A stretch of DNA of 64,000 bases from a virus. Lineage: Duplodnaviria > Caudoviricetes. The notes beneath the pieces are model-generated. The model did not search any database and was not told where the DNA came from. It saw only the letters and a list, made by a program, of their open reading frames with translations. Below are positions 6,475 through 61,304 of this stretch, piece after piece (position 1 is the first letter of the stretch; every line of letters begins with the position of its first letter). The DNA lies in IMG/VR virus record IMGVR_UViG_3300009664_000002, positions 7,333 to 71,332 of that record, one strand, 5' to 3'. The position numbers and the translations under genes are program-made.

Positions 6475-8493
6475 TTATTTTTTTAAATCGGTAAATAACC
6501 AAGAATGTACCAAATAAGGATTTAGTGAAGACGGATTATTGGGAGATATTCTATTTTTATATTTATTTTTCATTAATTCTTCATTTACATCATTACTGGT
6601 TAGTATTGCATTAATCATTTTTTCTGGATTATAATTATTTTGTTTAAATAAAATCATTTCAAAATTTAATACATATAATCCAATGGCTAATCCCATTATA
6701 CTATCATCATGAAAAGTCCTTTTATGGTCAGCAACTCGATTACCCGCAACGGTGATAAATGTTTTTAATTCACTTAATAATCTAATTGATTGTATTTTTA
6801 TATCGCCAAGATGAATTGCTCTTTGTAATTCAAGTAAAACAGAACCTCTATTATTTCCAATAAAAAAACCTGGTATTAAATCTATATTTACAATTCTACC
6901 ATCAAATAATGTTTTTTGTGCTGATTTAATATATCCTTGTAATCTATCACGTGATGGTTTATGTGTTATTTCTGAATAATGAATATTTTCATATCCAAAT
7001 TCAAGTAATTTTTCAACAACTTGTACACCAAGACCACCAGTAATATCAATAACACAATATCCATCATTATATCTTTTTGCATACTGATAAGCAATTTCTG
7101 CTAATGTTTGTGGTTTTACTTTTCCATAATATTCAGCAACTTGAACAAGTTTATTTTTTTTAATTTTTATTTTTTGTGGTTTATTGTTTTTTGTAATAAT
7201 CTTTTCTTCAATAATTTCTTGTTTTTTTAATATGTTTATTGTTGAATAATCATCACCATGACCAGATGATGTATCAATACCAATAAGATAATCTTCACCA
7301 ATTATTGGGTCTTCCCAAATCCACATATTTAAATCAGTATATTCCTGTCTAATTGGTGGTTTAATTTCATTTTCTTCAATTCTTTTTAAATATTCTTCTG
7401 CAATGAAATTATCACCTGACCCAAGAAATGAACACATTAATTCTTGTGCTATTTTTTTCATATCACCATTAGCATCACGAATTTGTTCTTCAAACCAAGG
7501 AGAAGTTGCTTCCCAACCATCATCCATCATCATAATTCTTTTCTTATTATCCCAATTTTCATCAATTAATTGTTTTTCATTTTCTTTTCCTTTATTTTTT
7601 ATCCACATTAAATCTTTATTATATCTTGGGTCATTAAACCACCACAATTCAACTGCTTTAAAATTATTTTCGTTTCTTTTAGCACCCATAAAAGTTTTAT
7701 AAAATACAGCATCCAATCCAAATGGTGTACTAACCATAATAGCAGCACCACCTGTTTGAAGTGTTGGTCTAGCCGATGTCCAAAAAATATCACCCTTTTC
7801 TGTCCATGCCGTTTCATCCCAAAAAATTAAAGTTGGTGTCATTCCACGAAGTCCTTTTGAACTAAAAGCACCTAATCGAGAACCATTATCATATAATTTT
7901 AATTTTTGTGTGTCTTTTAGATTTTTTTCTGTTTGTCTTCCAGTTTTAGGTTTCAACCAATCAGGACAATCCTCAATAAAATTAACAACATCTGACATTA
8001 ATTCATCCTTTGCTGTTTCTAATTTATCAGCAACAATAGCAACTTGTCTATTTTCATTAAACATAATATACCATGCAATGTATGCACAAGTTGTTGTTGA
8101 TACACCAGCCTGACGATATTTATTTGCAATAACAAATTTATTTTGTAAATATATTTCAATTAAATCTTTTTGAAAGTCAAATAATTTAAATGGTATTATT
8201 TCACCATTACCATCATTTTTTGTTTGGTCAAATATTGTTAAATATTTTTCTATAAAATAAATTGGATTTAAAGCACAACGAATAATTTCATCTTCTTGTT
8301 CTGAAAAAGTTAAATCGTTTACCGTTTTTACTTTTCCTTCTTTTGTAGTTATAACAGGAATATATTTGCTTGATTTTTTTCTTAATTCAGATGCCAATCT
8401 TCTTGCATCTAACTTACTCTGTTCAAGTTGATAATTAAATGGTATTTGTGGTTCATGTTCTGGATAATTTATATTGTCTTCTTTATTATTCAT
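6475..8493 (-). CDS. terL: Terminase large subunit, T4 gp17-like
   Basis: Walker A-like NKYRQAGVSTT, Walker B LIFWDE, nuclease motifs IGIDTSSGHGDDYS and HDDSIMG. Confidence 0.95.
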   Translation of the reverse strand: MNNKEDNINYPEHEPQIPFNYQLEQSKLDARRLASELRKKSSKYIPVITTKEGKVKTVNDLTFSEQEDEIIRCALNPIYFIEKYLTIFDQTKNDGNGEIIPFKLFDFQKDLIEIYLQNKFVIANKYRQAGVSTTTCAYIAWYIMFNENRQVAIVADKLETAKDELMSDVVNFIEDCPDWLKPKTGRQTEKNLKDTQKLKLYDNGSRLGAFSSKGLRGMTPTLIFWDETAWTEKGDIFWTSARPTLQTGGAAIMVSTPFGLDAVFYKTFMGAKRNENNFKAVELWWFNDPRYNKDLMWIKNKGKENEKQLIDENWDNKKRIMMMDDGWEATSPWFEEQIRDANGDMKKIAQELMCSFLGSGDNFIAEEYLKRIEENEIKPPIRQEYTDLNMWIWEDPIIGEDYLIGIDTSSGHGDDYSTINILKKQEIIEEKIITKNNKPQKIKIKKNKLVQVAEYYGKVKPQTLAEIAYQYAKRYNDGYCVIDITGGLGVQVVEKLLEFGYENIHYSEITHKPSRDRLQGYIKSAQKTLFDGRIVNIDLIPGFFIGNNRGSVLLELQRAIHLGDIKIQSIRLLSELKTFITVAGNRVADHKRTFHDDSIMGLAIGLYVLNFEMILFKQNNYNPEKMINAILTSNDVNEELMKNKYKNRISPNNPSSLNPYLVHSWLFTDLKK

Positions 8494-10247: not shown

Positions 10248-10273
10248 ATACGAAAAATTGAAATTATTGTTAC

Positions 10274-16412: not shown

Positions 16413-16438
16413 ATTTTTGTATTTATATTTTTAAACTA

Positions 16439-16446
16439 TATATTTG
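16439..16446 (+). promoter_or_regulatory. Bacteroidota-type -7 box TAnnTTTG upstream of leader 1
   Basis: TATATTTG here; the same box occurs at 18413, 19709, 21709, 25792, 30801, 32458 and 43155. Confidence 0.6.
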
Positions 16447-16459
16447 TAAAAAATTTTTT

Positions 16460-16525
16460 ATGATATTAAATGTAAATATACAACAACCCAATTCAAATCA
16501 ACATCCAAATATATTTAGATGGTGA
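16460..16525 (+). CDS. Attenuator leader peptide 1 (MILNVNIQQPNSNQHPNIFRW)
   Basis: 21-codon ORF rich in Gln/Pro/His codons; antiterminator overlaps its stop; precedes Pro/His/Gln tRNAs. Confidence 0.8.
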   Translation: MILNVNIQQPNSNQHPNIFRW

Positions 16526-16561
16526 GGTTTGTTGTATTATTTATATTTGAAAAAATAAATT

Positions 16562-16591
16562 AAACCCCACCAAAAAAAGTGGGGTTTTTTT
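16562..16591 (+). terminator. Attenuator terminator 1
   Basis: aaaccccac/gtggggttt hairpin with U-tract; 5' arm is complementary (10/11) to tggtgaggttt at 16520-16530. Confidence 0.85.
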
Positions 16592-16616
16592 GTAACATTT
16601 TATTTAGAATAACGTA
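16591..16616 (+). promoter_or_regulatory. ECF-sigma-like promoter TGTAAC-N16-CGTA downstream of terminator 1
   Basis: One of at least 15 copies with 16-17 nt spacing. Confidence 0.65.
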
Positions 16617-16628
16617 AAAATAAAAAAT

Positions 16629-16705
16629 AGGGTAGTTGGGGAGTCAGGTCACCCCGCCACATTTGGGATGTGGAGAACTCGTGAGTTCGAATCTCACCTA
16701 CCCTA
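16629..16705 (+). tRNA. tRNA-Pro(TGG)
   Basis: Acceptor agggtag/ctaccct, anticodon arm ccaca-tttggga-tgtgg, T-loop ttcgaat. Confidence 0.9.
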
Positions 16706-16707
16706 CT

Positions 16708-16780
16708 GTGTTAGTGGACTATTGGCTGTCCGTTCAGATTGTGGCTCTGAGTGATGGGGGTTCGATTCCCCTCTAACACC
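16708..16780 (+). tRNA. tRNA-His(GTG), no encoded G-1
   Basis: gtgttag/ctaacac acceptor, C73, tcaga-ttgtggc-tctga; base -1 is T. Confidence 0.93.
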
Positions 16781-16785
16781 AAAAT

Positions 16786-16856
16786 TGCTCTATGGTGTAA
16801 TGGTAACACGTCAGAATTTGACTCTGAAGATTTAGGTTCGATTCCTTATAGAGCAA
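16786..16856 (+). tRNA. tRNA-Gln(TTG)
   Basis: tgctcta/tagagca, tcaga-atttgac-tctga. Confidence 0.92.
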
Positions 16857-16860
16857 CAAA

Positions 16861-16975
16861 ATTATAATCTAAATGAATTCGGGTGAAAAGTAGTAAGTTG
16901 GTTAAATTCCAAGTTCAATTAAAATTATGAGAAATCTAGTAAGGTGGTTCGAATCCATTATATTTGGATTATAAT
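16861..16975 (+). ncRNA. tRNA-like RNA with 15-bp terminal stem and T-arm
   Basis: 16861-16875 pairs with 16961-16975; T-arm ggtgg-ttcgaat-ccatt; central ttgg-ttaaatt-ccaa hairpin. Confidence 0.5.
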
Positions 16976-16981
16976 TTTTAA

Positions 16982-17056
16982 CTAGGTGTTCCGCAGATGG
17001 CTATACGGACATGCATTGGAAGCATGTTTTCGGGAGTTCGAATCTCTCCACCTAGA
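16982..17056 (+). tRNA. tRNA-Pro(TGG), second copy
   Basis: ctaggtg/cacctag (C1:G72, A73), catgc-attggaa-gcatg. Confidence 0.88.
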
Positions 17057-17070
17057 CTAATTTTTTTATT

Positions 17071-17442
17071 ATGAAGTATAATTTATATTTAGATGATTTT
17101 AGAAATCCAAGTGATTCTGCATATTATTTAAAAAATAATATCTATTTGAAATTGGAATGGGTTGTAGTTAGAAATTATAATGAATTTGTAAAATGTATTG
17201 AAAAAAATGGAATTCCTGAAATTATTTCATTTGACCATGATTTAGCAGATATTCATTATGATTATCAAACAGATTTATTTTCAGAAAAAACTGGTTATGA
17301 TTGTGCTAAATGGTTTATTGATTATATTATTGATAATAATTTACAATTACCAAAAAAAATATTAATCCATTCAATGAATCTAGTTGGAAGTAAAAATATT
17401 AAATCTTTATTTGATAGTTATATTAAATCATTAGAAAATTAA
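17071..17442 (+). CDS. Cyclic-phosphate-processing receiver domain protein (RNA repair associated)
   Basis: LYLDDFRNP, WVVVRNYNEF, ISFDHDL, KTGYDCAKW and IHSMN motifs. Confidence 0.78.
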   Translation: MKYNLYLDDFRNPSDSAYYLKNNIYLKLEWVVVRNYNEFVKCIEKNGIPEIISFDHDLADIHYDYQTDLFSEKTGYDCAKWFIDYIIDNNLQLPKKILIHSMNLVGSKNIKSLFDSYIKSLEN

Positions 17443-18455: not shown

Positions 18456-18554
18456 ATGAAAAATTTACTCGACATACTATCATTAAATTTAGAAAGTGTT
18501 CTATTATGGGCGGTTAACGAAGATGATTTGTTAATTGATGTCGGGTTATATTAA
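18456..18554 (+). CDS. Attenuator leader peptide 2 (MKNLLDILSLNLESVLLWAVNEDDLLIDVGLY)
   Basis: 21 of 32 residues are L/D/E/V/A/W, matching the downstream tRNAs. Confidence 0.82.
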   Translation: MKNLLDILSLNLESVLLWAVNEDDLLIDVGLY

Positions 18555-18606: not shown

Positions 18607-18616
18607 GTTCTTTGAA
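18607..18616 (+). promoter_or_regulatory. boxA-like GTTCTTTGAA
   Basis: Identical 10-mer at 19721 (before tmRNA) and 31030 (before tRNA cluster 4). Confidence 0.6.
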
Positions 18617-18965: not shown

Positions 18966-18975
18966 CTGAATAAAT

Positions 18976-19049
18976 GGGGGTGCATGTACCAAGGCTGGCG
19001 AGAAACACTTGCAATGTTTCTGTGGTGGGTTCGTTTCCCATCATCTCCA
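18976..19049 (+). tRNA. tRNA-Ala(TGC)
   Basis: G3:U70 in gggggtg/catctcc, aaaca-cttgcaa-tgttt. Confidence 0.9.
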
Positions 19050-19082
19050 CAAAAATTATTACTATTTATTATAAAAAAAGAA

Positions 19083-19655: not shown

Positions 19656-19742
19656 CAAAAAAAAATAAAAAATTTGTAACATTTTTTGGTTATTTACGTA
19701 AAAAGATATATATTTGAAAGGTTCTTTGAATTAATAGTATAT

Positions 19743-23256: not shown

Positions 23257-23308
23257 TTTTTTTGTAACAAAGTTTTAATATTTTCGTATTAAAAAAATAA
23301 AAAAGGAA

Positions 23309-24409
23309 ATGGATTATTTAAAAAAAATAGATTGGAATGTTTTAAATAATTATATTAATGATGGTTTAATTACAAAAAACAAGCATCCTGAATATGACAT
23401 TTGGGTATTAAATTATTCACCAAAAACTCAAGCAAAAGGTTTGTGGGATTTATATACATTATCGTGTAGAGGACTAATTATTGATATTGATGGTAATATA
23501 TTGGCAAGACCATTTCAAAAATTTAAAAATATTGAAGAACATGATGAATCAGAATTTGATTTAACACAAGATTTTGATATTTTTGAAAAATTAGATGGTT
23601 CTTTAATCATATTATTTTATTATAAATCACAAATGAAATGGATTGTTGCATCAAGAGGTTCTTTTATTTCTGAACAGTCAATTGAAGCAAAAAAAATGTT
23701 ATATAAAGATTTAAATTTATTTAAAAAACTTAATAAAAAATGTACTTATTTGTTTGAAATCATATATAAAAAAAATCGTATTGTTGTTGATTATGGTGAT
23801 ATGTATGATTTAATATTGTTGTCAAGAATTGAAACCAATACAAATTTTGAATTGTTTTATGATGACTTAGTTGATAAATATTCTAAAATATTTACTATTG
23901 TAAATAAAATAAATATTAAAATTAATAATATATATGAATTAAAACAATTAAATGAAAAAAATAAAGAAGGGTTTGTTGTTAGATTTTTTAATGGATTTAG
24001 AGTAAAAATAAAATTTGAAGAATACGTTAGATTACATGGTATTTTAACTAATGTTTCCAATATAATAATATGGGAACATTTAAAAAATAATTATGATTTT
24101 AATAAAATCTTTGATAAAATACCAGACGAATTTTATAATTGGATTGTAAAAACAAAAAAAGAAATAATTTCTGAATATAATGAAATCGAAAGAAACGCAT
24201 TAAAAGAATTTATAAAAATATTTCATATTAATAATATTAAAGAACGTAAATCATTTGCTTTAGAATCTTTAAAAACAAACTATTCTTCAATATTATTTAA
24301 ATTGTATGATAAAAAAGAATATAATTATATTATTTGGGATATGATTAAACCAAAATATTCAAAACCGTTTAATAATAATGATAATATTAATGATTTGAAT
24401 TTATTGTAG
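23309..24409 (+). CDS. RNA ligase, T4 Rnl1 (RnlA) family
   Basis: EKLDGSL adenylation motif I, CRGLI...ARPFQKF, EGFVV, VKIK. Confidence 0.88.
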   Translation: MDYLKKIDWNVLNNYINDGLITKNKHPEYDIWVLNYSPKTQAKGLWDLYTLSCRGLIIDIDGNILARPFQKFKNIEEHDESEFDLTQDFDIFEKLDGSLIILFYYKSQMKWIVASRGSFISEQSIEAKKMLYKDLNLFKKLNKKCTYLFEIIYKKNRIVVDYGDMYDLILLSRIETNTNFELFYDDLVDKYSKIFTIVNKINIKINNIYELKQLNEKNKEGFVVRFFNGFRVKIKFEEYVRLHGILTNVSNIIIWEHLKNNYDFNKIFDKIPDEFYNWIVKTKKEIISEYNEIERNALKEFIKIFHINNIKERKSFALESLKTNYSSILFKLYDKKEYNYIIWDMIKPKYSKPFNNNDNINDLNLL

Positions 24410-25806: not shown

Positions 25807-25884
25807 ATGATTAGAAATAACAAATATTACCACAGCATTAAATTCTATAAGAAGATTCTTATGGTAATGGGAATTCTATGTTGA
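25807..25884 (+). CDS. Attenuator leader peptide 3 (MIRNNKYYHSIKFYKKILMVMGILC)
   Basis: 7 Lys/Tyr among residues 6-16; precedes tRNA-Lys and tRNA-Tyr. Confidence 0.8.
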   Translation: MIRNNKYYHSIKFYKKILMVMGILC

Positions 25885-26020: not shown

Positions 26021-26023
26021 CTT

Positions 26024-26117
26024 GGATGTCTAACGGCAGCAGACTGTAAATCTGCCCCACTTGAAAAAATTGTCGTATTGGTGTAGTGGTAGGGGGGTTC
26101 AAATCCCTCGGCATCCA
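26024..26117 (+). tRNA. tRNA-Tyr(GTA), non-canonical (D-arm relocated)
   Basis: ggatgtc/ggcatcc, gcaga-ctgtaaa-tctgc, T-arm; 8-nt 5' linker and 37-nt post-anticodon segment. Confidence 0.75.
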
Positions 26118-58595: not shown

Positions 58596-58828
58596 TTCTT
58601 ATACGTATTTTAAATTAAAAAGTTTCAATCTTATTTAAAAATTTATATCTTTTTTTAATTTAGAATAATTCTAAATAGGGTTATTTATTTTAAATTTGGT
58701 TTATTACAATTAGTTTATTTTAATGTAATGGCAATTAATATTTAATATAAGACGTTTATTTGTTTGTTTAGTATAGAGTATTGACAAAAAAAAACGGGCT
58801 TAAATTAGCCCGTTTTTTAGTGTTTAAG
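58596..58828 (-). repeat. About 230-bp intergenic promoter/terminator module, copy A
   Basis: Near-identical to 59412-59650; partial copy at 60586-60670. Confidence 0.88.
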
Positions 58829-61116: not shown

Positions 61117-61304
61117 TTTTATTGATTAATGCTATTTGAATATACGGAATGAATAAAAAATAGTTTCATTTCTATATAAAAAAACATTGTTCGATTAATA
61201 GTTATTAATTAAAACATAAATATTTTATATTTTTTGAAACTTTTATTTTTATATTACGTATTATTAAATATAATTACATTTTGTTTAACTAAAATTTTTG
61301 AATT

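Follow-up and report, generated by a model that had tools for sequence, protein, structure and literature searches.

Positions 16,460 to 17,056 of the DNA analysed here carry a short open reading frame (ORF), an intrinsic terminator and four transfer RNA (tRNA) genes, an arrangement that we refer to, together with the promoter in front of it, as unit 1. The DNA is a stretch of 64,000 nucleotides (nt) from a virus of the Caudoviricetes (IMG/VR record IMGVR_UViG_3300009664_000002, positions 7,333 to 71,332), and this whole stretch is called the window below. A preliminary description of the sequence had read unit 1 as an attenuator, in which translation of a leader rich in Gln, Pro and His codons decides whether the tRNA genes behind it are transcribed. 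The features of the locus, all on the plus strand, are as follows.

16416-16446, plus: Bacteroidota-type housekeeping promoter, with a -33 element TTTG at 16416-16419, a 19-nt spacer and a -7 element TAnnTTTG at 16439-16446.
16460-16525, plus: leader ORF of 21 codons, with ATG at 16460 and TGA at 16523-16525.
16466-16489, plus: region 1, the predicted 5' strand of a long leader hairpin (anti-antiterminator) in the minimum-free-energy fold of 16440-16600.
16481-16507, plus: regulatory codons 8-16, comprising Gln CAA three times, Pro CCC and CCA, and His CAT, interrupted by Asn-Ser-Asn.
16519-16550, plus: region 2, comprising the predicted antiterminator strand (16520-16530) and the strand pairing with region 1 (about 16526-16550).
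16562-16590, plus: regions 3 and 4, the intrinsic terminator, with a 9-bp stem at 16562-16587 that has 5 G-C pairs and an 8-nt A-rich loop, and a T tract to 16590.
16592-16616, plus: GTAACA-N15-CGTA, a promoter-like motif resembling those of extracytoplasmic function (ECF) sigma factors, between the terminator and the first tRNA gene.
16629-16706, plus: tRNA-Pro(UGG).
16708-16780, plus: tRNA-His(GUG).
16786-16857, plus: tRNA-Gln(UUG).
16858-16981, plus: 124-nt spacer separating tRNA-Gln from the second tRNA-Pro, with a closing helix of ~19 bp and a T-arm-like GGTTCGAATCC (z = -2.65).
16982-17057, plus: second tRNA-Pro(UGG).

What the preliminary description had said of the individual parts was confirmed in the sequence. 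The ORF lies before the tRNA genes and was read directly; its residues 8-16 are QQPNSNQHP, with Q, P or H at 6 of the 9 positions; tggtgaggttt at 16520-16530 spans the final codon (TGG) and the stop, and is complementary to the 5' arm of the terminator, aaaccccacca (16562-16572), with 10 of 11 positions matching and an A/C mismatch at the other; and the tRNAs for Pro, His, Gln and Pro were all called by both ARAGORN and Rfam. Taken alone, the composition of the leader is moderately unusual: Q, P and H account for 6 of 20 residues against a background of 0.068 (binomial p = 1.7e-3), and at least 6 of 9 such residues are found in 7 of the 438 small ORFs of the window. The promoter in front of the leader follows the established Bacteroidetes consensus. 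TTTG-N18-20-TAnnTTTG occurs 12 times in the window versus 2.1 expected and stands upstream of all four leaders described here, and the element is kept before the corresponding leader in four relatives (G003, G004, G005 and G007). A transcript starting from 16416-16446 would have a 5' untranslated region (UTR) of only a few nt. A Shine-Dalgarno core was found before none of the 49 long ORFs of the window, and short A/U-rich 5' UTRs would therefore suit the initiation mode of the host.

The module is conserved together with its tRNAs. A search with the RNA ligase encoded in the window gave 21 loci (39-67% identity) whose tRNA groups stand in the same order, and ten of these records were extended. 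Five syntenic relatives (RNA ligase 56-64% identical) reach the Pro/His/Gln block, and all five have an ORF of 22-24 codons, a terminator and tRNAs for Pro, His and Gln. Searching IMG/VR by the leader core alone returned 25 contigs, in which a hairpin and T tract and then tRNA-Pro/His/Gln follow wherever downstream DNA is present, and homologous ORFs of 22-25 codons were found in 24 further contigs. The core of these leaders, which we call family A, is QPQPQQHPQ or a near variant, with 9 of 9 residues cognate to the tRNAs in most. Nothing was found in an exact-match search with a long promoter string, no relatives emerged from a related-locus search using the neighbouring 301-residue ORF, and a blastn comparison of the unit 1 region with cultured phages gave matches to tRNAs only. 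The distant RNA-ligase relatives L021-L023 (39-41% identity) are without such units, the tRNA array of L022 following an ordinary protein gene; thus the design appears to be clade-specific here.

Variation within family A points to translation of the leader. Nineteen members were aligned, and codon positions were counted on the 18 relatives. Among the nine core codons, variable columns numbered 2/9, 0/9 and 7/9 at the first, second and third positions, with minor-allele counts of 3, 0 and 23, respectively. Every third-position change in the core was CAA/CAG or CCA/CCG, with the exception of one CAC (His) at codon 8, and the ratio of nonsynonymous to synonymous substitution rates (dN/dS) for the leader ORF was 0.46. 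This third-position periodicity argues that selection acts on the amino acids decoded and not on the RNA sequence as such. The gap between the terminator and the first tRNA gene is mostly 14-27 nt in the relatives, which is too short to hold a promoter of its own, and the tRNAs of these phages would therefore be made only by read-through of the terminator.

The second line of evidence is the pairing that would compete with the terminator. The terminator hairpin of unit 1 has an energy of -13.2 kcal/mol, and the duplex between the leader and the 5' arm reaches -13.1 kcal/mol, as against -5.3 ± 1.6 in dinucleotide shuffles, none of 300 of which attained -13.1. In the relatives, an 8-nt segment of the Glu-Trp-Gly (E-W-G) codons, GAATGGGG, is perfectly complementary to the 5' arm of the terminator, CCCCATTC, which forms one G-U pair with its true 3' arm; the terminators themselves are conserved and have GNRA-type loops. 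In unit 1 of the window, arm and upstream segment each have a sequence unlike that of the relatives but remain complementary, with the register displaced by 3 nt. RNAalifold, applied to the 19 sequences, recovered the terminator, a 4-bp pairing of regions 1 and 2 (Pro codon with antiterminator) and a spacer hairpin. The last of these is a conserved hairpin over the last codon, the stop and the spacer (columns 74-109 of alignment A2), in which RNAalifold marked 4 compensatory pairs.

Folding of 16440-16600 gave a structure well below shuffled sequences (z = -5.3), with a long hairpin spanning 16466-16550. Because equilibrium folds did not discriminate between ribosome positions, they were replaced by snapshots of the RNA folded up to the point before transcription of the 3' arm. 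In the modelled snapshot of free unit 1 RNA, the antiterminator is held in the long 1:2 hairpin and the 5' arm is predicted to be unpaired. With the ribosomal A site at codons 2-14 the 5' arm is predicted to be sequestered, and with the A site anywhere from codon 15 through the stop it is predicted to be free. The constrained folds of unit 1 are thus predicted to reproduce the logic of trp-type attenuation. The antiterminator is the preferred structure of the free RNA in the snapshots for some relatives.

Such alternative structures exist regardless of translation, and the conserved spacer hairpin with its compensatory changes could likewise belong to a switch that works through RNA alone or through a protein, by T-box-like binding of uncharged tRNA or by a phage antitermination protein, the ORF being incidental. 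We hold this to be very improbable. Rfam gave no match to a T-box or other riboswitch, the leader RNA (~130 nt) is too short for a T-box, the periodicity of the core is a coding signature, and a conserved ATG and an in-frame stop next to the antiterminator are present in every member.

Three further leaders in the window, each preceding a different block of tRNA genes, have the same organization.

18456-18554: leader of unit 2, before tRNAs for Asp, Glu, Val and Leu (family B).
25807-25884: leader of the Lys/Tyr unit, before tRNA-Lys and a probable tRNA-Tyr (family C).
30857-30970: fourth leader, before tRNAs for Cys, Ser, Phe, Arg, Gly, Met, Asn and Thr (family D).

Each of these sister units has 8-10 homologues in relatives, and when leader composition was set against tRNA set across the families the result was a diagonal matrix. 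In family B, D, E, V, L, A and W make up 58-75% of the leaders, and P, H and Q are absent from every one; K and Y make up 30-41% of the family C leaders, and T, C, I, S, N, F, G and R make up 70-87% of those of family D. The enrichment of each leader in its own set had p values of ~1e-3 to 5e-8 in families A, B and D and was weaker in the Lys/Tyr family C (~0.03 to 6e-4). Of 34 units, nearly all have an antiterminator segment in the 3' portion of their ORF, and the number of shuffles (of 300) that reached the duplex energy was zero or small in most units, 10-23 in seven and 115 in the family D unit of G008. The Lys/Tyr unit of L008 has completely different terminator arms, and its ORF segment is altered to match them. 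Coincidence was considered as an explanation for the four leaders and rejected, the joint small-ORF probabilities of the four units being ~1e-7 and the modules being conserved.

These comparisons bear on whether the small ORF is simply a functional micropeptide gene, with the hairpin as its ordinary terminator and the match to the tRNAs as a matter of conserved gene order only. Conservation of the ORF with a dN/dS below 1, and of the C-terminal E-W-G motif, would be in keeping with a micropeptide. The four peptide families are unrelated, however, and each mirrors its own tRNA set; within families, substitutions shuffle residues of the cognate set and positions are not kept; and the conserved residues outside the core fall on RNA-pairing segments, E-W-G itself being the antiterminator strand. 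The terminators, moreover, adjoin the tRNA genes and leave no room for a promoter. A micropeptide of this kind is therefore highly unlikely to be the explanation.

Several tRNA-like stretches in and around the units were recorded. At 26022-26117, after tRNA-Lys, the sequence resembles tRNA-Tyr and has GTA in an anticodon context; it received no ARAGORN or Rfam call, and relatives have tRNA-Tyr at this place. The stretch 18975-19054 has a blastn match to tRNA-Ala of other phages and drew no default ARAGORN call; relaxed ARAGORN gave a weak tRNA-Ala(UGC) with a mismatched acceptor stem, and tRNA-Ala occupies this place in relatives. The spacer at 16858-16981 in unit 1 gave no Rfam match and no default ARAGORN call, and the relaxed call was weak and implausible; it may be a decayed or aberrant tRNA. 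For other uncalled tRNA-like stretches, calls from relaxed ARAGORN were unreliable. In addition, a box GTTCTTTGA occurs 4 times in the window versus 0.59 expected, and three copies (18607-18615, 19721-19729 and 31030-31038) lie 20-30 nt before the first tRNA-Asp, the transfer-messenger RNA (tmRNA) and tRNA-Cys. Most units of the relatives have the box, often as GTTCTTTGACATGTTGGAAA, ahead of their first tRNA, and in the window it is absent from unit 1 and from the Lys unit. It may be a processing or pause signal.

The motif behind the unit 1 terminator belongs to a class that is frequent in this genome. It resembles ECF-sigma promoters, which have 'AAC' at -35 and 'CGT' at -10, about 16 nt apart. 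In the window, GTAACA-N14-18-CGTA occurs 10 times versus 0.15 expected, always in intergenic DNA, after a T run and before genes, including those for tmRNA and RNA ligase; in units 2-4 (the three sister units) it overlaps the host-type promoter upstream of the leader. The preliminary description had proposed that an ECF-like promoter after the terminator could bypass attenuation. This holds in part: the motif at 16592-16616 belongs to an over-represented class and a bypass is plausible, but the arrangement is limited to a few genomes, L008 and L069 having the motif at the matching position and most relatives lacking it. Two Sigma70_r2 proteins, of 220 and 280 amino acids, are encoded by the complete relative G002, and none by the 71-kb fragment from which the window was taken. 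On the minus strand at 10273-10249, a GC hairpin and T tract are followed directly by GTAACA-N15-CGTA and a protein gene, in the same arrangement as in unit 1. A second class, GAAACT-N15-CGTAT, has five intergenic copies with a T run upstream and near-identical flanks, at 58626, 59440 and 61167 on the minus strand and at 61236 and 61884 on the plus strand. Together, the GTAACA and GAAACT classes suggest two phage sigma specificities.

If 16592-16616 were the main source of the unit 1 tRNAs, the attenuator would be vestigial or minor in this phage, and leader and terminator would yield an inherited, short, dead-end transcript. In line with this are the membership of the motif in an over-represented intergenic class, the same order of terminator and motif before the protein gene at 10273 (minus strand), the degenerate leader core of the window relative to its relatives, and the absence from unit 1 of the GTTCTTTGA box found before other tRNA units. 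Nevertheless, no part of the switch has been lost, from the ORF and its stop codon through the 1:2 hairpin and the antiterminator to the terminator; 16592-16616 is only a putative promoter; and L008 and L069, which carry the internal motif, have a perfect Q/P/H core. The antiterminator has also changed along with the terminator arm, which argues for continuing selection on the switch. We therefore regard a vestigial attenuator as improbable.

The attenuator reading of the preliminary description is thus borne out by four sets of observations, namely a module conserved with the same tRNAs, variation of the core at third positions, three sister units matched to their own tRNAs, and terminators that adjoin the tRNA genes. 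All predictions for a ribosome-mediated attenuator that could be examined at the level of sequence held. From sequence comparison and modelling, unit 1 probably works as a ribosome-mediated (leader-peptide) transcription attenuator controlling a phage tRNA operon. Several points weigh against this conclusion. The leader of unit 1 is the weakest and most degenerate of its family (6 of 9 cognate residues, with the Asn-Ser-Asn break), and as a single ORF among the small ORFs it has p ~0.02-0.04. No column-wise covariation was seen in the alignment, in which the antiterminator and the 5' arm are nearly invariant among the relatives and the window version is shifted by 3 nt. Equilibrium folds with a ribosome mask favour the terminator in nearly every ribosome state, so that, as in trp, any control would have to act kinetically. 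Modelled stalls at His15 and Pro16 give no antitermination, and sensing of His by the unit 1 copy is therefore doubtful. The motif at 16592-16616 could make the switch irrelevant for the unit 1 operon, which is the chief ground for not placing more confidence in unit 1, and coupling of transcription and translation in the presumed host group is an assumption.

The attenuator would operate as follows. Transcription would start at the Bacteroidota-type promoter (16416-16446), and the near-leaderless ORF of 21 codons would be translated at once. When Gln, Pro and perhaps His codons are decoded fast, the ribosome at the last codon and stop would cover 16520-16530, the terminator would form and the tRNAs would not be transcribed. 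When decoding is slow, as when host tRNA-Gln, tRNA-Pro or tRNA-His is scarce, damaged or uncharged, the ribosome would stall on region 1. Such a stall would melt the 1:2 hairpin, 16520-16530 would pair with the 5' arm, and polymerase would read through into the genes for tRNA-Pro, His, Gln and Pro, the products of which would relieve the stall and so close a negative feedback loop. With no ribosome on the leader, the 1:2 hairpin and the terminator would both form, leaving the switch off by default. The second, phage-type promoter-like motif may express the tRNAs independently of the switch. We infer leader translation, transcription-translation coupling in a probable Bacteroidota host and the regulatory outcome.

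The setting of unit 1 is a large phage genome with an extensive tRNA region. The source record is a 71-kb IMG/VR virus fragment for which CheckV gives a completeness of 24%, and the window is therefore a piece of a phage of ~300 kb. Among the proteins encoded in the window are a T4-type portal and large terminase, and 22 tRNA genes and a tmRNA gene were called by ARAGORN, all on the plus strand. Three other genes of the window were noted.

17071-17442: protein with a cREC_REC (cyclic-phosphate processing receiver) domain, directly after unit 1.
23309-24409: Rnl1-type RNA ligase, with its own GTAACA-CGTA motif at 23264.
27091-30417: ribonucleotide reductase large subunit, split by an intein splicing domain.

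The first two place tRNA repair functions inside the tRNA region. By terminase (TerL), the nearest cultured phage, with 29% identity, is one of Flavobacterium. The promoter type and the absence of Shine-Dalgarno sequences make a Bacteroidota host likely.

Considered together, the four units are open to a broader interpretation, which we judge to be somewhat better than an even bet. Four attenuators would monitor the decoding of nearly all amino acids (P/H/Q; D/E/V/L/A/W; K/Y; T/C/I/S/N/F/G/R), each turning on its own tRNA block only when its codons are read slowly, so that supply would be driven by demand and the same device would serve as an alarm for depletion of host tRNAs or their cleavage by anticodon nucleases; a host-type promoter feeding the unit 1 switch and a phage-type promoter behind it would add stage-specific control. 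If this is true, the virus gauges the speed of ribosomes on chosen codons and tops up the tRNAs that limit them. Such a scheme would help to explain how large tRNA sets are regulated in large phages, why tRNAs are grouped by amino acid with the order of the groups conserved, and how these phages might respond to host shut-off or to tRNA-cleaving defence. The design would also offer ready-made sensors of how fast chosen codons are decoded.

Attenuation by leader peptides is textbook knowledge for amino-acid biosynthesis genes and a few synthetase genes. Matches to unit 1 at E <= 1 were absent among the Rfam leader families (Trp_leader, His_leader, Thr_leader, Leu_leader, Bacteroid-trp and others), and a sub-threshold Thr_leader match (28 bits versus 55) was obtained elsewhere in the window, on the unit at 30972-31032. 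A full-text literature search, to which many subscription journals lay outside coverage, returned no description of leader-peptide attenuation of tRNA genes. We therefore view unit 1 as a variant of a mechanism whose kind is already known and of which prior publication is possible; what sets it apart is that the targets are tRNA genes, that the setting is viral, and that multivalent leaders are matched to tRNA sets.

Two RNA elements are among the nearest parallels. In T-box leaders, a specifier codon and the T-box sequence bind uncharged tRNA directly; these leaders need no translation and are about 200-300 nt long. Unit 1 resembles them in that it would sense tRNA status and steer read-through of a terminator by means of an antiterminator, but the coding periodicity of its family core points to a ribosome sensor rather than a T-box. 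The Bacteroid-trp motif (Rfam RF01692) is a cis-regulatory leader located before the trp genes of Bacteroidetes (PMC2864571). Leader elements of this general kind thus occur in the presumed host phylum. Bacteroid-trp differs from unit 1 in sequence, in serving a single amino acid, in its biosynthetic targets and in its cellular location, and it has no match to the window; we take it to be a peptide leader.

The pheST operon of Escherichia coli, with its pheM leader, is a case in which attenuation controls part of the translation apparatus, for the very amino acid that the regulatory codons specify. There the genome is cellular and the target is a synthetase dedicated to one amino acid, whereas unit 1 would control tRNA genes for three amino acids. 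With the enterobacterial leaders trpL, hisL, pheL and leuL, unit 1 shares a short ORF in which regulatory codons are clustered, and the predicted 1:2, 2:3 and 3:4 pairings that exclude one another, masking of region 2 by a ribosome at the stop codon, and termination as the untranslated default, and as in thrL and ilvL a single leader would monitor several amino acids. It departs from these classical attenuators in that its antiterminator strand lies inside the end of the ORF and not after the stop, in that its promoter type and the absence of a Shine-Dalgarno sequence point to a Bacteroidota host, and in that it is viral and targets tRNA genes instead of biosynthetic enzymes, so that its product would act directly on the step that is sensed.
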